This document shows positions 12,712-50,746 of a stretch of 64,000 nt of DNA, one piece after another. Under the pieces are notes generated by a model. That model did not search any database. It was not told where the DNA came from and worked only from the letters and a program-made list of their open reading frames with translations. A program made the position numbers and the translations under genes. Each line of letters starts with the position of its first letter. The first letter of the stretch is position 1. The stretch lies in the NCBI GenBank assembly GCA_017439555.1, contig JAFSIZ010000186.1, positions 390-64,389 on the forward strand, written 5' to 3'. Source of the stretch: Oscillospiraceae bacterium (GTDB lineage Bacteria; Bacillota; Clostridia; Oscillospirales; JAAYXM01).

Positions 12712-13038
12712 TTATTTGAGCGCGTCTTCAAGAGCCGCGGCAAAGCTGTCCTTCGGAAGAACGCCGACCTTTTTATCAAACACTTCGCCGTCTTTGAATA
12801 TGATTATTGTCGGTATTGACATAATGCCGAATTTTGCGGCGAGCTCGCTCTCCTCATCCACGTTTACCTTATAGACATCGACACGGCCTGCAAAATCAGC
12901 CGAGAGCTCGTCTATAACAGGTGCGAGCATCATGCACGGGCCACACCAGGACGCCCAGAAATCGACGAGAACAACGCCGCTGTTGTTTGCGACCTTATCA
13001 GCAAAATCAGCTGTTTTGAGTGATATAGCATTAGACAT
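12712..13038 (-). CDS. trxA: Thioredoxin
   Basis: 108 aa with the WCGPC active site and the canonical thioredoxin layout. Confidence 0.92.
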   Translation of the reverse strand: MSNAISLKTADFADKVANNSGVVLVDFWASWCGPCMMLAPVIDELSADFAGRVDVYKVNVDEESELAAKFGIMSIPTIIIFKDGEVFDKKVGVLPKDSFAAALEDALK

Positions 13039-39917: not shown

Positions 39918-41597
39918 GTGTGTTTTTTGAAAAACAACAGAGCTTTGCTTTTTATAGCAAAAACTTCAAAACGTGAAATGCCGTGGATGCTGTTTGTCAC
40001 AGTGTTGAATGCAGTTTATGCGGCGCTGAATGTATATTTTGCGCTGGCTATGCGCGATGTTATAAACTATGCCGTTGCAGGTGATGTGAATTCTGCATAC
40101 AGCGCAGGGCTTGTGTTCATCGGCGTCGTGGCGGCGGAGATTGTATTGTTCTTTATCGTCAGGCTGCTTGCGGCAAAGACGACGGCGAAACTCAACGCGA
40201 CCTTCCGTCGCGCTGTTTTCGGTGAGATTATAAAAAAAGATTATTCGTCCGTCTCTGCGTTTCACAGCGGAGAGATAATCAACCGTATGTTCAACGATGT
40301 TGCAGTTGTGAGCGACAATGTATCGACACTCGTGCCGAATATCGCAGGGCTAATAACAAGGCTTCTCGGCGCGCTCGTTGCGGTATATCTCGTTGACAGG
40401 ACGTTTGCGCTCGTCATCCTTTGCGGCGGTGTCGGACTCTTTGTGTTCGCGAGAGCATTCCGCGGAATTATGAAGCGCACTCACAAGGGCGTGCAGGAGG
40501 CAGGCGGACGTCTGCGCTCGTTTGCGCAGGAAATTATGGCGAACATTCTCGTCGTGAAGGCTTTTGAGATGGAGAAAAGCCTTGATAAGAAGGAACAGGA
40601 AAACGAGAAAGCCTATTATAAGAAAAAAATGGTGCGCGCATTCTTCTCGACAGGCGCAAGCACAGGCTTTTCGACGATAATGAACTGTGGGTATCTCTAT
40701 GCCGTGCTCTGGGGCGCGGCGAAGATCCTGACAGGTGCGGCAGGCTTTGGCTATGGCGATTTCACGGCGATAATGCAGCTCATAAACCAGATTCAGTCGC
40801 CGTTTGCGTCTCTCTCGGGAAGTCTTTCAAGATATTACAATGCAATCGCATCTGCGGAGAGAATACTCGAGCTTTGCGATCTCCCGGATGACGGCGCGGA
40901 AAACAGAGCAGACACGAAGGCGATATACAGCGCTCTTTCTCATATAAAGCTTTCAGATGTAACCTTTGCATATGACGATACAGAGGTTTTCGATTCGGCA
41001 AGCGTTGAGATCAAAAAAGGAGAGCTCACCCTCATTTCGGGAATTTCGGGCATCGGAAAGAGCACGATGATAAAGATGCTTATGGGCGTATTGAGGCCGC
41101 AGAGCGGCGCGATTGAGGCGCAGCTTGAAGGCGGCGGCAGTATCCCTGTCGATGCATCGACGCGCTCGCTCTTTGCCTATGTGCCTCAGGGCAATCTACT
41201 GATGAGCGGCACGATCCGCGACAATATGTTGCTTGCGAAGGACGATGCAACCGATGCTGAAATACTCGATGCGCTGCGCGTTGCCTCGGCAAAGTTTTTC
41301 GATGAGCTTCCCGAGGGGCTTGATACAGTTCTCGGCGAGCGCGGCAGCGGCCTTTCGGAAGGGCAGATACAGCGCCTTGCAATCGCAAGAGCGGTTCTCT
41401 GCGGTGCACCGATTCTGCTTCTCGATGAGGCGACAAGTGCGCTCGATGAGCCGACAGAGCGCGAAGTGCTTGAAAATATTATGAAGCTTCCGGGCAGAAC
41501 CTGCGTCTGCATATCACACAGAAGTGCAGCGAAAGAGGTATGCGATAAAATTATATATGTAGAGAACGGGAAGATAAAGACGGAGGAGCAGATATGA
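39918..41597 (+). CDS. ABC exporter, fused permease and ATPase (MsbA/CydC-like half transporter)
   Basis: Six-helix N-terminal half. Walker A GISGIGKST, signature LSEGQIQRLAIARA and Walker B ILLLDEATSALD. The start is uncertain (GTG 39918 or TTG 39927). Confidence 0.8.
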   Translation: MCFLKNNRALLFIAKTSKREMPWMLFVTVLNAVYAALNVYFALAMRDVINYAVAGDVNSAYSAGLVFIGVVAAEIVLFFIVRLLAAKTTAKLNATFRRAVFGEIIKKDYSSVSAFHSGEIINRMFNDVAVVSDNVSTLVPNIAGLITRLLGALVAVYLVDRTFALVILCGGVGLFVFARAFRGIMKRTHKGVQEAGGRLRSFAQEIMANILVVKAFEMEKSLDKKEQENEKAYYKKKMVRAFFSTGASTGFSTIMNCGYLYAVLWGAAKILTGAAGFGYGDFTAIMQLINQIQSPFASLSGSLSRYYNAIASAERILELCDLPDDGAENRADTKAIYSALSHIKLSDVTFAYDDTEVFDSASVEIKKGELTLISGISGIGKSTMIKMLMGVLRPQSGAIEAQLEGGGSIPVDASTRSLFAYVPQGNLLMSGTIRDNMLLAKDDATDAEILDALRVASAKFFDELPEGLDTVLGERGSGLSEGQIQRLAIARAVLCGAPILLLDEATSALDEPTEREVLENIMKLPGRTCVCISHRSAAKEVCDKIIYVENGKIKTEEQI

Positions 41598-42286
41598 ATA
41601 TATCGGGTTTTCAGAAGCTTACGTTGCTTGATTTTCCGGGTAAGACGGCGGCGACATTGTTTACAGGCGGCTGTAATATGCGCTGCCCATTCTGCCACAA
41701 CGCGCTTCTTGTGACGGAGTTTGACGGCTCTTCGGATTTTTCCGAGGAAGAGGTGCTTGCGTATCTCAAAAAGCGCGCAGGAATTCTTGACGGCATCTGC
41801 ATAACCGGCGGTGAGCCGCTTCTGCAGCGCGATATTGCTTCTTTCATTTCAAAGGTCAGGCAGCTCGGGATGCTTGTCAAGCTCGACACGAACGGAAGCT
41901 TTCCTGAAAGGCTTCGTGAGATTGTTTCCGAAAACCTTGTCGATTACATAGCGATGGATATAAAAAACTCAAAGGAGAAATATGCGGAGACCTCGGGCGT
42001 CCGCGATTTTGATATTGCGCCGATTGAGGAAAGCGTCAGCTATATTATGTCCTGCGGAGTGGATTATGAATTCCGCACAACAGTTGTCCGCGAGCTTCAC
42101 GAGGTTGAGGATATAGGCGGCATAGCCGAATGGATAAAGGGCGCAAAGAGATATTTTCTGCAGAACTTTGTCGATTCGGGAAATCTCATAGGCGAGGGCT
42201 TTTCCGCACACAGCCGTGAAACTCTGGAGAAAATGAGAACTGTCGCGGCAGAGAGGATTGGTTTTGTGCAACTTCGAGGAGTGTAG
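41594..42286 (+). CDS. nrdG: Anaerobic ribonucleoside-triphosphate reductase activating protein (radical SAM)
   Basis: LLDFPGKTAATLFTGGCNMRCPFCHN CxxxCxxC cluster motif and GGEPLL. ATGA overlap with the ABC gene. Confidence 0.82.
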   Translation: MNISGFQKLTLLDFPGKTAATLFTGGCNMRCPFCHNALLVTEFDGSSDFSEEEVLAYLKKRAGILDGICITGGEPLLQRDIASFISKVRQLGMLVKLDTNGSFPERLREIVSENLVDYIAMDIKNSKEKYAETSGVRDFDIAPIEESVSYIMSCGVDYEFRTTVVRELHEVEDIGGIAEWIKGAKRYFLQNFVDSGNLIGEGFSAHSRETLEKMRTVAAERIGFVQLRGV

Positions 42287-42337
42287 GAGAACGGGGAATA
42301 ACACAAGAGAACCGTACTGCAAAGTAAATAAAGACAG

Positions 42338-42377
42338 CCCCTGCAAACGGAAATTCCGCTTGCAGGGGTTGTTGTTT
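42338..42377 (+). terminator. Intrinsic terminator after nrdG
   Basis: cccctgcaa...ttgcagggg followed by ttgttgttt. Confidence 0.7.
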
Positions 42378-42496
42378 AGTGAATCCGAAAGCCTTATTCA
42401 ATCGAGTCGGCTATGAAGGTTACTTTGCCACCGCCGTTGAACGTCAACACAACAGAACTGTCACCTTGTGTTTTTCCTTTGGCTTGGGCATGCAAC

Positions 42497-43042
42497 TTAC
42501 ATACGCTCCGCATCAAAATATAAAATACTGTTTGTACAATCCAAGTAAACCTCTCCCATATAATTTACACCGAGAATTTCATTTGAAAATTGTTCATTAT
42601 ACATCCATTCAAATTCGCTGCATCCCGTAACTTCAGGTTGAATCCCTTCTTCAAAGTTCAAATCAACATTTTCAAACTTATACTTTTCGAGTAAACATTG
42701 CGCATTATCTTCATCTATCATCATAAATCCCTTCATCCAGTACGATGTTGGACCAACCGCAAAACCGCCAAAAACACCCACTTTCCAATAACATTGTCCT
42801 ATATCCAGATTTTCACCAAATCTTTTAATCAATGGCTCAGTATCTGTCCGATATTCAATTTTGGGTAAATCTGAAGGACTTTGTGATTCTACATAAAGAA
42901 TCTTGAATATTAGTATTATGTATAGTAGTATTATAGCTGCAATCACAAAGAACACATAAAGCATTTTTTTTAAAACAGGCTTCAACGACTTCGCCCCCTT
43001 TCGCTTTGTTTCTCCGATGCCTTCACATCTTTCATCGACCAA
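42497..43042 (-). CDS. Hypothetical membrane-anchored protein (AT-rich islet)
   Basis: ORF with a TM helix MLYVFFVIAAIILLYIILIF. The start is uncertain. Confidence 0.45.
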   Translation of the reverse strand: MVDERCEGIGETKRKGAKSLKPVLKKMLYVFFVIAAIILLYIILIFKILYVESQSPSDLPKIEYRTDTEPLIKRFGENLDIGQCYWKVGVFGGFAVGPTSYWMKGFMMIDEDNAQCLLEKYKFENVDLNFEEGIQPEVTGCSEFEWMYNEQFSNEILGVNYMGEVYLDCTNSILYFDAERM

Positions 43043-43090
43043 GCATTCAACAAGCCATTTGGCTTTGCGTCCATTCTAAATGGCCGTGAA

Positions 43091-43408
43091 TTAAGCGCTG
43101 ATGATCCAAAAAAATGATATGCGGAAAATGATATGAGTAACTAATAAAGCAATGCCATAAGCCCATCTTTTATTTGCAAATAATTCATATGATGCATATA
43201 GCGAAAATATCTCCGGACAAGCCATAACATAGCAAAGCAGAAGAGAATAAGGCAGTGAAACACCATTGTATAAATGAAGTACAAAAGATGTATCAACACC
43301 GATTGTTAAAAACAGCCGATACAAAACCTGCAAAACCGCATGGTAAGCTAAAATAATCAACAAAAGATAGCGTCCGACCATATATAGTTTATTAATTATC
43401 CTTTTCAT
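43091..43408 (-). CDS. Small polytopic membrane protein
   Basis: 105 aa with three hydrophobic helices. Confidence 0.4.
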   Translation of the reverse strand: MKRIINKLYMVGRYLLLIILAYHAVLQVLYRLFLTIGVDTSFVLHLYNGVSLPYSLLLCYVMACPEIFSLYASYELFANKRWAYGIALLVTHIIFRISFFWIISA

Positions 43409-43507
43409 GTTTCATAACCTCATTAATTATTAGAAATATCGAATCTCTTATCTTCCGGGACATTATGCCATCCCAACCCAACAATACTGCGAGCCATTTG
43501 CTGTGGG

Positions 43508-43526
43508 GACGTCCCTGTTTGGCCTC
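43508..43526 (+). repeat. Islet repeat motif, degenerate copy
   Basis: gacgtccctgtttggcctc versus the consensus tacgtccctatttggcctc. Confidence 0.6.
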
Positions 43527-43534
43527 AAATAGTT

Positions 43535-44383
43535 TTAATCATCAATTATATTGACAGGCATAAAACCAGCACGAACTTTATTTTTTATAAATATGTCTCT
43601 CAATTTCTTCGAAACAACTATAAAGCGATTGGGTTTTAATCCGTATGAAAATTCAAATGAAAAATTCAAGTCTTTTGCTTTTACCAAACTACTATGACTA
43701 TACTTAACATTTGAAGCAATTAGATACTGTTTATGTTCACACGATTTTTCTCTCCATTCCCAAAACCATGTTTGGGAATGCATTGGCGGAAGTATATTAT
43801 TTGCGGTTGGTTCTATACAAAAATACTCTCCCATTTCTCTTCCTTTATAATCTTTTAACATATGCTTAAATTCAAATCCGGTTAAGCTATTTTCTTCTAT
43901 CAACCATTTCGTGGATTTGGATATAGCTATTATGCTATCAGTTAACTGCAAAATCGGCTTTTTCTTAATTAATTTGCGATCAATTAAAGCATCACTGACA
44001 AGACTTCTGTTCGCATCACATAATGTGCAACCATTACGAAATTGAGTACCATAATCCTCCAAATGAACAGCTTCAATTTCCATCGGATCAGATAACCACA
44101 TATAAAAGAACTCGCAATTTTTTTCTTCGATTGGAGTGTAAACAGTTTTTTCACGAATTTCCAAATGTGCCCCTATTCTTTTTGCCATTTTTGTCACATA
44201 TAAGTATTCATCTGTATCAGGCATTAACGGCAAACAAAAGGGACCGTGTTCTGAATATTGGAAATCCTTTCGTAAACAACTTGGAATCGAATCTCTGACA
44301 TTGTCATAAATTTCTCTTCGTATGTTGTTTTCGATAAAGCCTAGATCTAAAATATGAACATCAAACACACTTAAATCCCCCAA
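43535..44383 (-). CDS. Hypothetical protein (AT-rich islet)
   Basis: 282-aa ORF with no recognisable motif, flanked by the repeat motif. Confidence 0.5.
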   Translation of the reverse strand: MGDLSVFDVHILDLGFIENNIRREIYDNVRDSIPSCLRKDFQYSEHGPFCLPLMPDTDEYLYVTKMAKRIGAHLEIREKTVYTPIEEKNCEFFYMWLSDPMEIEAVHLEDYGTQFRNGCTLCDANRSLVSDALIDRKLIKKKPILQLTDSIIAISKSTKWLIEENSLTGFEFKHMLKDYKGREMGEYFCIEPTANNILPPMHSQTWFWEWREKSCEHKQYLIASNVKYSHSSLVKAKDLNFSFEFSYGLKPNRFIVVSKKLRDIFIKNKVRAGFMPVNIIDD

Positions 44384-44407
44384 TCTATTCCGGTTGTATG
44401 GTGCAAA

Positions 44408-44436
44408 GCCATTTGGGGACGTACATTTTTTGGTAC
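44408..44436 (-). repeat. Islet repeat motif, inverted copy
   Basis: The reverse complement gtaccaaaaaatgtacgtccccaaatggc resembles ataccaaataatgtacgtccctatttggc. Confidence 0.6.
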
Positions 44437-44524
44437 TATTTTACGCACGCGTTATAACCCCTCTCGAAACCCCGGTCAATCTTTGCAACTGTCTCACCGG
44501 AAAATTCTTTTTCAGCTCTGCCAA

Positions 44525-44580
44525 GATACCAAATAATGTACGTCCCTATTTGGCCTCTTCCGTCCCTATTTGGCCTCTTC
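44525..44580 (+). repeat. Islet repeat: 36-bp unit with a tandemly duplicated 20-mer
   Basis: gataccaaataatgtacgtccctatttggcctcttc, then a second cgtccctatttggcctcttc. Confidence 0.85.
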
Positions 44581-44648
44581 GCGCTGTTCTACTCACTCCA
44601 ATCACCTCTGCAAAAAGTATACCATATTCTTCTCTTCACATCAATAAT

Positions 44649-44684
44649 GATACCAAATAATGTACGTCCCTATTTGGCCTCTTC
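44649..44684 (+). repeat. Islet repeat: second exact 36-bp copy
   Basis: Identical to 44525-44560. Confidence 0.9.
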
Positions 44685-44706
44685 AGAATAAACCCGACAA
44701 GTGATT

Positions 44707-45051
44707 TTATACTTGTCGGGTTTGTGTTACTATTACGCTTACTTCCTTTTTGGCTTTTGCGCAGGCATCAATTACAAATTTGGTTCCTTTTGATTTGCCG
44801 TCACAAAAAGCAACAACAGAATCTGCATATTCAATTATCTGCAGATTGCGCTTTAACGGCGCTCCTTTTTTATAGCGCCTATAATCAGGAAGAAATTCTT
44901 TTAATATCAGTCCGTTCCTTTTTGCGTATTCTCGTGCGCAGGTATCAATTCCGCTTGCTCCGCCGGATACTATTTCAGTTGTTCCGGGTGGAAGATAGTC
45001 GCCAAGATTTTCAACTGTCAGCTTGCGCGAACCTATTACCGCTATTTTCAT
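44707..45051 (-). CDS. SLOG-superfamily (DUF2493-like) Rossmann protein
   Basis: 114 aa. MKIAVIGSR...EIVSGGASGIDTCAREYA...PDYRRYKKGAPLKRN...VVAFCDGKSKGT fits the GGxxGxD SLOG/DUF2493 pattern common in phage and conjugative-element DNA. Confidence 0.6.
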   Translation of the reverse strand: MKIAVIGSRKLTVENLGDYLPPGTTEIVSGGASGIDTCAREYAKRNGLILKEFLPDYRRYKKGAPLKRNLQIIEYADSVVAFCDGKSKGTKFVIDACAKAKKEVSVIVTQTRQV

Positions 45052-45253
45052 ATCTCAACATCCTAACATAATTTAGGGAAGACAGGGAAACGGTTCTATT
45101 GTCCGTTATATTTTCTCTATAATCCCCTTGTCTTATAGAGCTGTGATTTTTCGCAGCTCTATATTTATAACGATTTTCTTATTTTTTTGGTCATTGCGGT
45201 GCGTTCCTATGTCGGAAAACGTACATATATGCATACCCACGCTTTTGAACTTA

Positions 45254-45365
45254 TACCCGTATTCGGGTATGTAGATTGTAGCATATTACTTATTGGAAGT
45301 CAACCCGTATTCGGGTAACCTCGGCCTTTTCTCATATTATGATTATATCAACCCGCAAACGGGTA
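45254..45365. promoter_or_regulatory. Three palindromic ACCCG-N4-CGGGT sites (candidate operators)
   Basis: tacccgtattcgggta (45254-45269), aacccgtattcgggta (45302-45317) and acccgcaaacgggt (45351-45364), directly upstream of the XRE gene. Confidence 0.55.
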
Positions 45366-45392
45366 ATCATAAGCAGTAAAGGGTTGAGGTTC

Positions 45393-45644
45393 GTGGAGTA
45401 TTGGGAAATATATATAAATAGAATAAAGAAGTTGTGCAAAGAGCGAAGAATTACAATAAACAAGCTTGCTACTATGAGTGATGTTAAACAATCTACACTT
45501 GATAATATTATGCGTGGGCTTACAAAAAATCCGCGTGTAAAAACCTTGCATAAGCTTGCCATTGCTTTCAATATGACTTTGTCTGAGTTTTTGGATTTCG
45601 AGGATCTCAACGATTATTCGTTTGAAGATGATGACGATGAATAG
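45393..45644 (+). CDS. XRE-family HTH regulator with acidic tail
   Basis: INRIKKLCKERRITINKLATMSDVKQSTLDNIMRGLTKNPRVKTLHKLAIAFNMTLSEFL. I prefer GTG 45393 because the track start (45339) would place an operator palindrome inside the ORF. Confidence 0.68.
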   Translation: MEYWEIYINRIKKLCKERRITINKLATMSDVKQSTLDNIMRGLTKNPRVKTLHKLAIAFNMTLSEFLDFEDLNDYSFEDDDDE

Positions 45645-45775
45645 AGAGGCATATTTCGAGGCGAACACAAAAGGGGGGTCTTGTGTTGTTCAATTATCTG
45701 ATATTTTTACATTCCAACATCCTAACATATATTTATAACATTTTTCAAGACATAATATTGGTGAGGTGAATTATT

Positions 45776-45964
45776 ATGGATGAAAAGCTTGTTATAAATA
45801 AAAAAGGAATTAAAGGAGAAGATGGGCATAAGACCTTCTCGGTCAGACTGAAGGACGAAACGGTTGCTGCGCTTGACAATTTATCTAAGCAAACAAACCG
45901 TTCAAGGAATGAGTTGATAAATATTCTGATTGAGTTTGCAATCGAAAACTGCGAAGTGCAATAA
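45776..45964 (+). CDS. Ribbon-helix-helix (RHH; CopG/Arc-like) protein
   Basis: KTFSVRLKDETVAALDNLSKQTNRSRNELINILIEFAI gives a beta strand followed by two helices. Confidence 0.58.
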   Translation: MDEKLVINKKGIKGEDGHKTFSVRLKDETVAALDNLSKQTNRSRNELINILIEFAIENCEVQ

Positions 45965-46135
45965 GAAGAGACGAATAAAAGACGCGAGGGAGGTTCTCTT
46001 GTCTCCGGTGACGGAACGATGGAACTGTCTTCGTGTCTTTTTTAAGCTTTCGGGTGAATATTTTTGTTAAAGTCTTGACATACGCATCCCAAAGTGTTAA
46101 ACTTATAACAATGTTTATTTGGGAGGTAAAAAGAA

Positions 46136-46894
46136 ATGTTTTGTTTGAAAAATCGCGTAGTAGTTGTATCGGGTGCGTCGTCTGGTCTCGGCGCACAGAT
46201 GGCAAGAGGCTTTGCGGCACAGGGTGCCGATCTTGTTATCACAGCAAGAAGAATTGAGCGTCTCAATGCTCTTGCAGAGGAAATCCGCGCAATGGGTGTC
46301 AAGTGCCTTCCCGTTCAGTGTGACGTAACGAAGCCTGAGCAGATCAACGCAGCGGCAGAAGCTGCAGAGAAGGAATATGGCAAAGTTGATGTGCTTGTCA
46401 ACTGCGCAGGCAGCGCAAAGAACGCAGGCGTTCTCGAGATGACAGACGAGGAATGGGATTTCACAATGTCCGCTGACCTCGACAGCGTTTTTTATGTAAC
46501 ACGTGCTTTTGCAAATGTTATGAAGAAGAACAACTATGGAAGAATCATCAATATCGCATCAATGTACGGTCTTGTCGGCAACCCGGCAATCGACACTGTT
46601 GCATACCACGCATCAAAGGGCGGCGTTGTAAACTTCACGCGCGCTGTTGCAGCTGAGCTTGCAAAGTATAACATCACCTGCAACTGCATCTGCCCGGGAT
46701 ATTTCGCAACCGAGCTTACAGAGGACACCCTCAAGACAGATGCGTTCACTGCATATATGAAGGCAACCGTTCCGCTCGGCCGCTATGGTAACGAGGGCGA
46801 GCTCAATGCAGGAGCAATCTTCCTTGCAAGTGATGAGGCTTCATATGTAACGGGTGTTATCCTTCCGATAGACGGCGGATATACAGCTATATAA
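46136..46894 (+). CDS. Short-chain dehydrogenase/reductase (SDR)
   Basis: Motifs SGASSGLG, NCAG and YHASKGG. Confidence 0.8.
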   Translation: MFCLKNRVVVVSGASSGLGAQMARGFAAQGADLVITARRIERLNALAEEIRAMGVKCLPVQCDVTKPEQINAAAEAAEKEYGKVDVLVNCAGSAKNAGVLEMTDEEWDFTMSADLDSVFYVTRAFANVMKKNNYGRIINIASMYGLVGNPAIDTVAYHASKGGVVNFTRAVAAELAKYNITCNCICPGYFATELTEDTLKTDAFTAYMKATVPLGRYGNEGELNAGAIFLASDEASYVTGVILPIDGGYTAI

Positions 46895-47039
46895 CTAAAA
46901 TAAGAATATGTGGCGGTGCTGCGGAAATTCCGTGGCGCCGTCTCTTTTTATATTAATTGCCCTGAGCGCCGCAAACCCTTGATACTATGCGGTTTTTGGC
47001 GGTTTTTGTCGCAGATTTTGTGTCGATTCGTAAAAATCA

Positions 47040-47055
47040 ACACAAGATATTGTGG
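47040..47055. promoter_or_regulatory. NrdR-box-like palindrome
   Basis: ACACAAGATATTGTGG resembles the acaCwAtATaTwGtgt consensus recalled from memory. It lies 20 nt upstream of the -35 of the nrdD promoter. Confidence 0.45.
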
Positions 47056-47074
47056 GTTTTTGCCGAAAAAAGTA

Positions 47075-47103
47075 TTGACAATAATTATATACTGTGATAG
47101 AAT
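47075..47103 (+). promoter_or_regulatory. nrdD promoter
   Basis: TTGACA, 17-nt spacer, TAGAAT. Confidence 0.65.
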
Positions 47104-47123
47104 TCTCTTGCACTCGCGAAAAA

Positions 47124-47184
47124 CACAAGATACATAAGTGCAACATAAATATATATGGCATATGTTGTGTTTATGTATCTTGTG
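47124..47184 (+). promoter_or_regulatory. Long imperfect palindrome in the nrdD leader (operator and/or RNA hairpin)
   Basis: cacaagatacataa-gtg-caacata ... tatgttg-tgt-ttatgtatcttgtg. It shares the cacaagata half-site with the box at 47040. Confidence 0.5.
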
Positions 47185-47214
47185 ATTGGAATAAAGACGG
47201 AAGGGGAATTTTTT

Positions 47215-49587
47215 ATGTATCAGGTAGTAAAACGTGACGGCAAGACAGTAAATTTCAACTTATCAAAGATCAGCAATGCGATTATGCAGGCGTTTGATGC
47301 TTGCGACAAGCAGTATAACTCCGACATAATCGATTTTCTCGCGCTCAAGGTAACGAGCGAATTTGAGCCGAAGATTGAAAATGGCGTAATCTCCGTTGAG
47401 GCAATTCAGGACAGCGTTGAGTCTGTTCTTATCAAGGGCGGTTATGACGATGTTGCAAAGGCATATATTCTCTACCGTAAGCAGAGAGAGAAGATCCGTA
47501 ACCTCGGCTCGACAATCGTTGATTATAAGGAGATTATCGACAACTATCTCCAGATAAACGACTGGCGCGTCAAGGAGAACTCCACGGTTACATATTCCGT
47601 CGGCGGTCTCATCCTCTCAAACTCCGGCGCTATCACAGCCAACTATTGGCTCTCCGAGGTCTATGACGATGAAATCGGCGATGCTCACAGAAACGCTGAT
47701 ATCCATATCCACGACCTCTCGATGCTCACAGGCTATTGCGCAGGCTGGTCGCTCAAGCAGCTCATTCAGGAAGGTCTCGGCGGCGTTACCGGCAAGATCA
47801 CTTCCGCTCCTGCAAAGCATCTCGCAACGCTCTGCAACCAGATGGTAAACTTCCTCGGAATTATGCAGAACGAATGGGCAGGAGCTCAGGCCTTCTCATC
47901 ATTTGACACATATCTTGCGCCGTTCGTCAAGGCAGACAACCTTGAATACGATCAGGTCAAGAAATGCATTGAGTCCTTTATCTATGGCGTAAACACACCG
48001 TCGCGCTGGGGTACTCAGGCTCCGTTTAGTAACATCACTCTTGACTGGACAGTTCCGAACGACCTTGCAGAGCTCAACTGCATCATCGGCGGCAAGGAAA
48101 TGGACTTCAAGTATAAGGATTGCCAGAAGGAAATGGATATGGTCAACCGCGCGTTCATCGAGATTATGATCGAGGGCGACGCAAACGGTCGCGGCTTCCA
48201 GTATCCGATCCCGACATATTCCATCACATCTGATTTCGATTGGTCAGAAACAGAGAACAACAAGCTTCTCTTTGAAATGACTTCAAAATACGGTACACCG
48301 TATTTCTCAAACTACATCAACTCCGATATGGAGCCGAGCGACGTCCGCAGTATGTGCTGCCGTCTCCGCCTCGACCTCCGCGAGCTCCGCAAGAAATCGG
48401 GCGGCTTCTTCGGAAGCGGCGAGAGCACAGGCTCTGTCGGTGTTGTAACAATCAATATGCCGAGAATTGCATACCTCGCAAAGAACGAGGAAGAGTTTTA
48501 TGCCCGTCTTGACAAGCTTATGGATATCGCGGCACGCTCGCTCAAGGTCAAGCGTACTGTCATCACAAAGCTTCTCGATGCAGGTCTCTACCCCTATACA
48601 AAGCGTTACCTCGGCACCTTCAATAACCATTTCTCGACAATCGGTCTTGTCGGTATGAACGAAGTCGGCCTCAATGCAAAGTGGCTCGGCAAGGATCTCA
48701 CAGATGAGAGGACACAGGCATTTACAAAGGATGTTCTCAACCATATGCGCGAGAGACTTTCCGATTATCAGGAGATGTATGGCGACCTCTATAACCTCGA
48801 GGCAACTCCTGCTGAGTCAACAGCTTTCCGCCTTGCAAAGCACGACCTGAAGCGCTATCCGAACATCATCACAGCTGCAAAGAACGAGGGCGATGCTCCG
48901 TATTACACAAACAGCTCGCATCTTCCTGTCGGCTATACAGAGGATATCTTCACAGCTCTCGACATTCAGGACGAGCTCCAGACACTCTATACATCGGGAA
49001 CGGTTTTCCATGCATTCCTCGGCGAGAAGCTTCCTGACTGGAAGGCTGCTGCAAACCTCGTCAGAAAGATTGCAGAGAACTATAAGCTTCCTTATTACAC
49101 GCTTTCTCCGACATATTCCGTCTGTAAGACACACGGCTATATCGCAGGTGAGCAGTTTGAATGCCCCGAATGTGGCGAGAAGACAGAGGTATATAGCCGC
49201 ATAACAGGCTACTATCGCCCGGTTCAGAACTGGAACGACGGAAAGAGCCAGGAATATAAGGACAGAAGAGTCTATGACATCGCAAGCTCAAAGCTTACAA
49301 GAAACGGAAGACCCGTTGAGGATGCACCGATAGCGGCGGCAGAGAGCTCTGACACAGTCGCTGACGGCAACTATCTCTTCACAACGGCGACCTGCCCCAA
49401 CTGTAAGATTGCTTGCGCAACGCTCGACAAGGCAGGCTTTGAATATGAGAAGCTCCTTGCAAACGAGCACAAGGCGCTTGCAGAGGCGCTCGGCATCAAG
49501 CAGGCACCGACGCTTGCAGTCGTCCGTGGCGGCGAGGTCACAAAATATACAGGCGTTTCCGATATAAAGAAGATGCTCAACGCATAA
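47215..49587 (+). CDS. nrdD: Anaerobic (class III) ribonucleoside-triphosphate reductase with ATP-cone and C-terminal glutaredoxin-like CxxC domain
   Basis: ATP-cone VVKRDGKTVNFNLSKI. Zn site C...CPECG. Glycyl-radical motif SRITGYYRPV. Extra C-terminal roughly 75 aa: LFTTATCPNCKIACATLDKAGF...APTLAVVRGGE. RBS before ATG 47215; the track start at 47155 lies inside the leader palindrome. Confidence 0.9.
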   Translation: MYQVVKRDGKTVNFNLSKISNAIMQAFDACDKQYNSDIIDFLALKVTSEFEPKIENGVISVEAIQDSVESVLIKGGYDDVAKAYILYRKQREKIRNLGSTIVDYKEIIDNYLQINDWRVKENSTVTYSVGGLILSNSGAITANYWLSEVYDDEIGDAHRNADIHIHDLSMLTGYCAGWSLKQLIQEGLGGVTGKITSAPAKHLATLCNQMVNFLGIMQNEWAGAQAFSSFDTYLAPFVKADNLEYDQVKKCIESFIYGVNTPSRWGTQAPFSNITLDWTVPNDLAELNCIIGGKEMDFKYKDCQKEMDMVNRAFIEIMIEGDANGRGFQYPIPTYSITSDFDWSETENNKLLFEMTSKYGTPYFSNYINSDMEPSDVRSMCCRLRLDLRELRKKSGGFFGSGESTGSVGVVTINMPRIAYLAKNEEEFYARLDKLMDIAARSLKVKRTVITKLLDAGLYPYTKRYLGTFNNHFSTIGLVGMNEVGLNAKWLGKDLTDERTQAFTKDVLNHMRERLSDYQEMYGDLYNLEATPAESTAFRLAKHDLKRYPNIITAAKNEGDAPYYTNSSHLPVGYTEDIFTALDIQDELQTLYTSGTVFHAFLGEKLPDWKAAANLVRKIAENYKLPYYTLSPTYSVCKTHGYIAGEQFECPECGEKTEVYSRITGYYRPVQNWNDGKSQEYKDRRVYDIASSKLTRNGRPVEDAPIAAAESSDTVADGNYLFTTATCPNCKIACATLDKAGFEYEKLLANEHKALAEALGIKQAPTLAVVRGGEVTKYTGVSDIKKMLNA

Positions 49588-49634
49588 GGCATCAAAAATC
49601 AGACGCGCACCGGTTTTTGGAAGGGATAATATAT

Positions 49635-50549
49635 ATGTATGATATTATAGTAATCGGCGGTGGCCCGGCAGGGCTTACCGCCGCCCTCTACGCAAGGAGG
49701 GCAAATAAGAGCGTTCTCGTTATTGAGAAGGCAACCTTCGGCGGCCAGATAACCTATTCTCCGAAGGTCGAAAACATCCCGGGTTTTATAAGCCTCACAG
49801 GCAACGAGTTTGCTGAAAAGCTCGTCGAGCAGGTGCTCGAGCAGGGCGCAGAGGTCGAGGCGGCTGAGGTCGAAAAGGTCGAGGTTGAGGGCGATATCAA
49901 AAAGGTTACGACAGATTGCGGCGATGTGTTTGAAGGAAAAAGTCTCATCATCGCGACAGGCGCACGCCACCGTCTCCTCGGGCTTCCGAATGAAGAAAGC
50001 TATATCGGCGAGGGGATTTCCTTCTGCGCTGTATGTGACGGCGCGTTTTATGAGGACAAGACGGTTGCTGTCATCGGCGGCGGAAACTCCGCGCTTCAGG
50101 AGGCGCTTCTGCTCTCTGACCTTGCAAAGAAGGTCTATGTTGTGCAGAACCTCGATTTCCTGACAGGCGAGGAAAAGCTTTCCGAACAGCTTTCCGAGCG
50201 CGACAACATCGAAGTAATTCTCGGCACTGTTGTCAAGGAGCTTCACGGTGAAGGCGAGCTTACGGGAATTACCGTTACAGAGGAAAAGACCGGCAAGGAC
50301 ACGCTCCTTGAGGTTGACGGAATGTTTATAGCAATCGGCCTTGTGCCACAGAATGAGATTTTCACAGAGGTCATAACTCTTGATGATCGCGGCTATGCCG
50401 AGGCGGGAGAGGACTGCATCACCTCCGCTCTCGGCATCTTCGCCGCGGGCGACTGCAGAAAAAAGCGCATCCGCCAGGTGACAACCGCAGCGGCAGACGG
50501 CGCAGTTGCAGCGCTCGCCGCTTGTGACTATGTTGATAATATGAAATAG
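49635..50549 (+). CDS. trxB: Thioredoxin-disulfide reductase
   Basis: DIIVIGGGPAG, redox-active CAVCDG, and GGGNSALQEA as the second dinucleotide motif. Confidence 0.9.
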   Translation: MYDIIVIGGGPAGLTAALYARRANKSVLVIEKATFGGQITYSPKVENIPGFISLTGNEFAEKLVEQVLEQGAEVEAAEVEKVEVEGDIKKVTTDCGDVFEGKSLIIATGARHRLLGLPNEESYIGEGISFCAVCDGAFYEDKTVAVIGGGNSALQEALLLSDLAKKVYVVQNLDFLTGEEKLSEQLSERDNIEVILGTVVKELHGEGELTGITVTEEKTGKDTLLEVDGMFIAIGLVPQNEIFTEVITLDDRGYAEAGEDCITSALGIFAAGDCRKKRIRQVTTAAADGAVAALAACDYVDNMK

Positions 50550-50669
50550 GTCGACGAAAAGTGTGCATGACCGCAGGCAAAGTGCCTGCTTTGTTCAAAG
50601 GTCACCTCTCGGAGTATCTGCATACACCTTCGGGTTCCCTTTGAACAATCCTACACTCTTTTGGTCAAC
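50550..50669. other. Highly structured roughly 120-nt intergenic element (candidate small RNA or miniature inverted-repeat element)
   Basis: Nested complementarity. Outer arms 50550-50565 and 50654-69 match at 13 of 16 positions. Hairpin gcaggca-aag-tgcctgc (50573-50589). An 11/11 helix ttgttcaaagg/cctttgaacaa (50591-601 and 50638-48) encloses a hairpin at 50611-50628. Confidence 0.35.
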
Positions 50670-50687
50670 CTAAAAGTCGATGATAAC

Positions 50688-50724
50688 AAAACAACCCTGT
50701 GTTTTGATAACATAGGGTTGTTTT
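50688..50724. terminator. Bidirectional terminator
   Basis: aaaacaaccct...agggttgtttt between trxB (+) and the ECF S-component gene (-). Confidence 0.7.
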
Positions 50725-50746
50725 GTGTATGTTTTATACGATTTGT

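Follow-up and report, generated by a model that had tools for sequence, protein, structure and literature searches.

An anaerobic ribonucleotide reductase with a fused redoxin domain and a linked thioredoxin reductase paralogue in Clostridia

Ribonucleotide reductases (RNRs) of class III are, in many strict anaerobes, the sole supply of DNA precursors. The subject of this report is a gene for such an oxygen-sensitive enzyme, nrdD, which runs on in the same frame into a redoxin domain and is followed by a gene related to trxB, the gene for thioredoxin reductase (TrxR). It lies in a 64,000 nt stretch of DNA, referred to here as the window, from an Oscillospiraceae bacterium (GenBank assembly GCA_017439555.1, contig JAFSIZ010000186.1, positions 390 to 64,389), and an original prediction made from the sequence alone had seen in it what would be a compact form of thioredoxin-type chemistry, with a covalently attached redoxin and a dedicated reductase.

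One of the closest precedents is the NrdD of Neisseria bacilliformis, the described NrdD2 enzyme, which uses TrxA, TrxB and NADPH (Wei 2014, cited through PMC4493059, PMC9669993 and PMC4390871). As portrayed in those citing papers, it resembles the enzyme in the window in having a beta-A cysteine, an extra finger-loop cysteine beside the thiyl cysteine and an active site glutamate, and a protein dithiol is the proposed reductant. To the extent covered by the same papers, the present system differs in that the redoxin is fused, the apparently co-transcribed reductase lacks the NADPH motif, the finger loop reads MCCR rather than SCCR, and pyruvate formate-lyase is present. The NrdD of Thermotoga maritima (4coi, 4u3e), which at 137 bits is one of the nearest relatives of the core with a solved structure, has active site cysteines and a glutamate that align with those found here, and it depended on a factor of >10 kDa in cell extract rather than on formate (PMC4493059). 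Unlike the fused enzyme, T. maritima NrdD has neither an ATP-cone nor a fused redoxin, and it is presumed to work with a separate glutaredoxin-like protein of 24 kDa. The argument for thioredoxin in N. bacilliformis and T. maritima rested partly on a lack of formate metabolism (PMC4390871).

Fusion of a redoxin to an RNR subunit has been described in Facklamia ignava, where the glutaredoxin (Grx) of a Grx::ATP-cone::NrdB protein was shown to be a working RNR reductant (PMC6187632), but that enzyme is of class I and its Grx is N-terminal and of the glutathione type. A RefSeq search in 2018 with Pfam thresholds listed a single Glutaredoxin:NrdD protein, from Lachnospiraceae bacterium TWA4 (WP_082039398.1, subclass NrdDd; PMC6187632 Table S1), which was listed and not studied there and which may belong to the fused group described below. 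Our literature search did not find any paper describing or testing a fusion of NrdD to a redoxin, which counts against the electron-transfer scheme proposed below. The NrdH/TrxR systems of class Ib enzymes and the NrdD3 enzymes with an NrdH-like redoxin (PMC9176816 Table 1) share with the present locus a redoxin of glutaredoxin size, recharging of the TrxR type rather than by glutathione, and a gene adjacent to that for the RNR.

In the window, a single stop-free reading frame extends from 47155 to 49587, and the ATG at 47215, which opens the sequence MYQVVKRDG of the ATP-cone, is the likely start. The features of the gene are as follows.

47215-49587, + strand: nrdD::redoxin fusion gene, 790 aa plus stop
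49198-49212, + strand: glycyl-radical motif RITGY (residues 662-666, with Gly665), invariant in the homologue alignment save for one I-to-L change
49282-49362, + strand: linker of variable sequence with many Ala, Glu and Asp (residues 690-716), recognized by column identity and low pLDDT
49363-49584, + strand: thioredoxin-fold redoxin domain (residues 717-790) with C727-P-N-C730 and a QAPTL cis-Pro motif, identified with AlphaFold2, Foldseek and a profile search

The product is a class III RNR consisting of an ATP-cone, an NrdD core, a linker of ~27 aa and a CPNC domain of 75 aa. Pfam places the ATP-cone (PF03477) on residues 3-92 and the NrdD core (PF13597) on residues 121-687 (E 3.6e-191, 637 bits, cut-off 26.2), and the NCBIfam model NF006126 (PRK08270) covers residues 1-689 with 1142 bits (cut-off 548). 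As the PRK08270 match ends at residue 689, approximately 100 residues of the protein lie outside any RNR model. A cysteine-rich zinc site, with Cys637, Cys650 and Cys653 invariant in the homologue alignment, precedes the glycyl-radical motif, which in its longer form RITGYYRPV occupies residues 662-670. The tail beyond this motif had been put at about 110 aa; it is real, though 120 residues long. The fusion of NrdD to a CxxC redoxin is upheld by the Pfam and NCBIfam matches, the predicted fold, Foldseek and the profile search, and the codons first assigned to the CPNC cysteines (49393-49395 and 49402-49404) are exactly those of Cys727 and Cys730.

The redoxin domain was modelled alone from an alignment of 28 copies, namely the last 75-80 residues of fused and short forms. 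AlphaFold2 returned a beta-alpha-beta-alpha-beta-beta-alpha fold (pLDDT 95, pTM 0.84) in which CPNC forms domain residues 16-19 at the start of helix 1 (17-29) and QAPT lies ahead of the strand at 55-60, with its proline presumably in the cis state. With this model, the concern that the extension might not adopt a thioredoxin fold can be set aside. A Foldseek search of the PDB recovered thioredoxins at probability 1.0 and a TM of about 0.72, and the second match was 9bxs_E, the redoxin chain of a Bacillus subtilis RNR complex. When PDB sequences were searched with a profile, the nearest was the C-terminal unit of the Pyrococcus 'glutaredoxin-like protein'/protein disulfide oxidoreductase (1j08, 1a8l), with desulfothioredoxin (2l6c) and Mj0307 (1fo5) also near and the PDB entries for NrdH matching at E about 1e-5. 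Phe, CPNC and Pro-Thr are invariant across the 28 domains, and each residue of QAPTL is invariant in the 12 C-termini aligned. The APTL...GGE pattern initially noted is conserved in its first part only: GGE falls at the turn between strands 3 and 4, where one Gly is invariant in those 12 C-termini, and is not a conserved motif. A third cysteine, Cys734 (49414-49416, in CPNCKIAC), lies four residues past CPNC and is found in 111 of 114 close homologues, and is variable in distant ones.

Assignment of the domain to an existing family was less straightforward. The glutaredoxin model PF00462 scores 21.6 bits on residues 721-766 in the full protein (threshold 22.9) and 25.7 bits on the same region in a six-frame search of the genome, and the NCBIfam redoxin models are all far below their own cut-offs. 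The YruB glutaredoxin-like model touches all 28 domain sequences far under its cut-off, while the NrdH model TIGR02194 is matched weakly by 23 of the 28 (best E 6.8e-7), short of membership. The domain also differs from NrdH, for which we take the signature to be CVQC with WSGFRP, in that its active site is CPNC, WSGFRP is not present in it, and it is fused rather than free. Judged by the predicted fold, the tail is a redoxin with the thioredoxin fold and the size of a glutaredoxin, and it does not fit clearly into any curated family.

The linker that joins this domain to the core is poorly conserved, with a mean column identity of 0.45 for residues 692-716 compared to 0.93 for the core and 0.83 for the redoxin domain, and is probably disordered, its pLDDT being <50 in a full-length model that is itself poor overall. 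In 53 of 115 close homologues the linker includes a cysteine pair (CxC, CC or CxxC) resembling the shuttle cysteines in the tails of class I and II RNRs. Such a pair is not essential, as the linker encoded in the window has no cysteine.

The fused module is real and very common in gut anaerobes. Using residues 685-790 as the query, 1118 clusters of NrdD-length proteins were recovered at E <= 1e-3, almost all 787-792 aa long and derived from metagenome-assembled genomes of Oscillospiraceae, Ruminococcaceae and Clostridia, so that a chance extension is far from credible, and CPNC is present in 119 of 120 NrdD-length homologues of the protein set. The original prediction had left open how common the fusion might be; the domain-architecture search reveals that it is not rare, as the redoxin domain turned up in 174 of the 401 species sampled from the host's order (~43%), representing 72 of 177 genera and 20 of 30 families and nearly always within a frame of 780-860 aa, and in 80 of 401 sampled species of the class. 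A pattern scan of GTDB species genomes confirmed at least 596 relatives, the best 80 of which, with names that include Oscillospiraceae, Acutalibacteraceae, Candidatus Fimenecus, Ructibacterium and Butyricicoccaceae among others, were used for all 80-locus neighbourhood counts given below. An NrdD of the PRK08270 type is present in 190 of the 401 genomes of the order and its counts by family nearly equal those of the redoxin domain; hence, almost every PRK08270-type NrdD in the order is fused. Two NrdDs of 688 and 705 aa are exceptions in lacking the fusion. On these sequence comparisons we judge the fused NrdD to be a common variant of a known enzyme type. In the Pfam annotation of the 1118-cluster search, the redoxin domain mostly escapes the thresholds in full-length proteins, which probably explains why a single case had been listed previously while hundreds of species are found here.

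The host genome is a metagenome-assembled genome of 200 contigs that is 84% complete, and a frameshift introduced by sequencing or assembly could in principle have joined nrdD to a separate redoxin gene. The chance of this is negligible. The same single frame, nearly always of 780-870 aa, occurs in independent species genomes, 174 of the order and 80 of the class, and in the 1118 clusters, and short standalone homologues in the database are mostly fragments named 'RNR, partial' on contigs of <2 kb. Domain-bearing frames of 120-260 aa in two relatives (G257 and G669) were considered as split forms and rejected because they are cut at contig ends. Three homologues (P0146, P0150 and P0238) consist of the redoxin alone, at 73-80 aa. 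Four metagenome gene calls (P0127, P0162, P0227 and P0229) carry an N-terminal piece of the TrxB paralogue followed by the redoxin, the reverse of the genomic order, and are possibly assembly chimeras or rearranged loci.

The residues of the active site were located by alignment to T. maritima NrdD (4coi), and their invariance was assessed over 114 full-length homologues.

47737-47739, + strand: beta-A cysteine (Cys175) at the bottom face of the active site, equivalent to T. maritima Cys125 and invariant
48352-48363, + strand: finger loop Met380-Cys381-Cys382-Arg383, the double-cysteine MCCR type, equivalent to T. maritima SCCR 328-331 and invariant
48799-48801, + strand: Glu529, the active site glutamate, equivalent to T. 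maritima Glu495 and invariant

The Cys381-Cys382 pair aligns with T. maritima Cys329-Cys330, and MCCR is among the finger-loop motif classes set out in PMC9669993. PMC4493059, citing Wei 2014, takes a third active site cysteine and a glutamate as the defining marks of NrdD2, with Met in some members. Both the third cysteine and the glutamate of that description are present in the fused enzyme which, by its active site residues, falls within the NrdD2 type of class III RNR so described and would be a ribonucleoside-triphosphate reductase of the glycyl-radical kind. Comparison with the formate-dependent and thioredoxin-dependent subtypes had been proposed as a check, and the outcome is a cysteine pair with a glutamate, as in the NrdD2 enzymes that use thioredoxin. 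Assignment of the fused enzyme to NrdD1, the formate type with MGCR and without the active site Glu, was ruled out by MCCR and Glu529.

A second class III system is present in the host genome, on contig C182 (locus L014:1153-3855). It consists of an E. coli-like NrdD1 of the PRK09263 type, 725 aa in length, with a short NrdG after it. This NrdD has an MGCR loop, with Gly at the position of Cys381, and Tyr at that of Glu529, and it ends right after the glycyl-radical motif without a C-terminal extension. Systems of the NrdD1 type are present in only 8 of 32 genomes of the family. Within the genus, NrdD1 was found in 4 of 19 genomes, the PRK08270-type NrdD in 14 of 14 sampled, and class I or II RNR domains in none of the 19; the fused NrdD is, therefore, usually the sole RNR found in the genus.

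The trxB gene directly follows nrdD on the same strand in all 29 relatives that were fetched first and in 77 of the 80 loci. A gene for an NrdG2-type activase, which installs the glycyl radical, was found in 56 of the 56 loci among the 80 that reach far enough upstream, lying just 5' of nrdD in 55 and 3' of trxB in one. The ancestral unit is, therefore, nrdG2, nrdD::redoxin, trxB. In the window, these partner genes are found at the following positions.

41594-42286, + strand: nrdG2-type activase gene (radical SAM; TIGR02495 NrdG2, 215.8 bits, cut-off 131)
49635-50549, + strand: gene for a TrxB paralogue, a flavoprotein that resembles low-Mr thioredoxin reductases but lacks the NADPH 2'-phosphate motif (TIGR01292 and motif alignment)

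That trxB lies 47 nt downstream of nrdD was borne out, as its ATG at 49635 is 47 nt past the nrdD stop and in the same transcription unit. The gene is of the TrxB family, as had been thought, but the pairing of its product with NADPH that was proposed with it is probably wrong because the 2'-phosphate motif is missing. The paralogue scores 323.7 bits with TIGR01292, under the cut-off of 343.45, compared to 364 for a TrxB encoded on contig C10. It keeps the FAD motif GGGPAG, the redox-active CAVC and the pyrophosphate motif GGGNSA. NADPH use is marked by GGGxxA(xE) and VxxxHRRDxxR (PMC5627308, PMC10880999) and contact with thioredoxin by G[R/K]G (PMC5627308). In the alignment, VYVVQNLDFLT (50145-50165) takes the place of VYLIHRRDAFR of the housekeeping TrxB, and the paralogue and six orthologues share VxxxQ[ND]L..[L]T, without a basic residue at the position of HRRDxxR. 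At the thioredoxin-contact position the sequences of the paralogue read GEG, GNG, GDG or GQG, and the basic G[R/K]G does not occur.

These features are shared in part with several described flavoproteins. Like FFTR (6gna-6gnd), TRi and TR3 of Desulfovibrio vulgaris, the NADH-TR of T. maritima (PMC5627308, PMC10880999) and the protein in structure 7jyp, the paralogue has a low-Mr TrxR fold, FAD and CxxC and no HRRDxxR. The best PDB match is 7jyp, at 271 bits and with the same QNL motif; our literature search found no functional data for it. Ordinary TrxRs match at 238 bits and the FFTR structure 6gna at 128 bits. GGGxxA is lost in FFTR and TRi and kept in the paralogue, which also lacks the TQ/NGK motif of TRi. 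Assignment to FFTR was not supported, as GGGNSA is kept here while FFTR lose both NAD(P)H motifs (PMC10880999), and as 7jyp is much the better match (271 versus 128 bits for 6gna). A canonical TrxB with HRRD is encoded on contig C10. The window itself includes a canonical thioredoxin gene at 12727-13026 on the - strand (PF00085, 104 bits), ~34 kb from nrdD. Given these canonical proteins elsewhere in the genome, the paralogue is an extra, specialised copy, and from its motifs it would be a specialised reductase that works without NADPH. Its donor is more likely to be NADH, or a protein of low potential, because the arginines for the NADPH 2'-phosphate are not there. The paralogue would mark a subgroup of TrxRs in which QNL replaces HRR.

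The same canonical TrxB and thioredoxin could reduce the redoxin with NADPH, in which case the trxB gene next to nrdD would be there by chance or would serve thiol or peroxide defence. A locus in which a TrxB-like flavoprotein is paired with a weakly matching standalone glutaredoxin-like protein and no NrdD is nearby (L149) is in keeping with this. We consider it very improbable, as the nrdD-trxB linkage spans many families, the two unfused NrdDs of the order (688 and 705 aa) have no trxB near them, and both the partner-contact and the cofactor motifs of the paralogue have changed.

The reading that we favour, and regard as probable, is a private disulfide relay in which electrons would pass from the reductase to the tethered redoxin and on to the NrdD active site at each turnover. 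Architecture, predicted fold, active site residues, conservation and gene linkage were examined directly, and from them we infer every step of electron transfer, with N. bacilliformis NrdD as the model. NrdG2 would install the radical on Gly665. Each turnover would oxidise Cys175 and Cys381 to a disulfide, with Cys382 as the thiyl radical and Glu529 as proton relay. The CPNC domain would then swing on the ~27-residue linker and reduce the active site disulfide by thiol-disulfide exchange, in its own subunit or in the partner subunit of the dimer, and the oxidised redoxin would be re-reduced by the downstream flavoprotein via its CAVC pair and FAD. The compact arrangement of redoxin and dedicated reductase that was originally suggested is, thus, supported by the NrdD2 residues, the fold and the gene linkage.

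Several observations weigh against this relay. Met380, the residue of the formate/thiosulfuranyl mechanism, is as invariant as its neighbours, and enzymes with MCCR, whose reductant is treated as open, hold the components for either one (PMC9669993). The role of the Cys-Cys motif is debated because crystal structures of the T. maritima enzyme place it far from the active site (PMC4493059). The full-length AlphaFold2 model, built from 30 closely related sequences, is too poor (pLDDT 57.9, pTM 0.44) for the reach of the redoxin domain to the active site to be drawn from it. A true pyruvate formate-lyase (about 745 bits) is encoded in the host genome, as well as in those of 17 of 18 relatives in the genus, and formate is, hence, available to the host. 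The ecological case made for N. bacilliformis and T. maritima thereby falls away and, with Met380 retained, the fused enzyme may use formate. The near-universal occurrence of pyruvate formate-lyase alongside a fused NrdD2 that is usually the only RNR also goes against a simple rule that NrdD2 signifies an absence of formate metabolism.

Formate could, then, be the turnover reductant and act through Met380 and Cys175, in the manner of E. coli NrdD, while the redoxin and reductase would serve for maintenance or as part of a dual-fuel version. As maintenance, they would keep the cysteines of the zinc site or the active site reduced for installation of the radical by NrdG2, or for its re-installation after oxidative episodes. 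In E. coli, thioredoxin takes part in activation of the class III enzyme (PMC4390871), and in the fused protein the redoxin follows directly on the zinc-ribbon and glycyl-radical domain. However, the invariant Cys381 and Glu529 are exactly what separates thiol-dependent from formate-dependent enzymes (PMC4493059), the formate-type NrdD1 of the host has no redoxin domain, and maintenance does not obviously call for the dedicated reductase found at 77 of the 80 loci. Hence, we regard formate as the turnover reductant as unlikely, though it is the main rival to the relay.

A further scheme would supply dNTP synthesis with electrons along a complete path independent of NADPH. Here, NADH, ferredoxin or flavodoxin would reduce the QNL flavoprotein, which would pass electrons to the redoxin and from there to the active site without shuttle cysteines, and Met380 would also permit the use of formate. 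We put this forward tentatively, as possible though doubtful.

The remaining features of the locus concern its expression and an insertion that is seen in this genome.

42287-46972, no strand assigned: insertion of ~4.7 kb comprising an AT-rich islet (GC 0.38; a gene of the XRE helix-turn-helix type and unknown genes) and a short-chain dehydrogenase/reductase (SDR) gene at 46136-46894, delimited by blastn and composition
46912-46942, + strand: terminator-like hairpin ending the SDR transcript, a 14-pair stem then a T-run
47040-47055, + strand: NrdR-box-like palindrome ACACAAGATATTGTGG, 20 nt upstream of the -35 hexamer
47075-47103, + strand: promoter of the sigma-70 type, TTGACA-17-TAGAAT and an upstream TG, agreeing with the consensus at 11 of 12 positions
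50573-50589, + strand: first terminator-like hairpin after trxB, with a second at 50686-50726 (hairpin scan)

Comparison by blastn with related loci (L047, L049, L050 and L051) indicates that homology ends near 42195-42285 and returns at 46973-47199, and, relative to the kin compared, nrdG2 is parted from nrdD in this genome only. The nrdG2 start at 41594 overlaps by 4 nt the stop of an ABC-transporter permease/ATPase gene (39918-41597), and this pair is kept in L049-L051. Measured against what we take to be the NrdR-box consensus, ACACAAGATATTGTGG is the sole match in the window with no more than one mismatch, and none of 100 shuffles reaches it. The box-like stretch is also kept in L049, immediately after nrdG2, and an NrdR gene is present on contig C83 (203.7 bits). 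No such box was found upstream of nrdD1 at locus L014 when up to 2 mismatches were allowed. As the hairpin scan of the locus found no terminator between nrdD and trxB, the sequence supports a single transcription unit of these two genes with its own promoter and a candidate NrdR box.

Occurrence of the redoxin fusion together with a dedicated reductase across hundreds of gut species suggests that MCCR enzymes use protein thiols, and would be the strongest genomic hint to this effect. The fused NrdD and its two helper proteins make up a ready-made experimental system, for which the NrdD1/NrdG pair and pyruvate formate-lyase of the host provide an internal control in the same genome. If an electron path independent of NADPH does operate here alongside the option of formate, this would be the first dual-fuel RNR, and it would be the sole RNR of many gut Clostridia.

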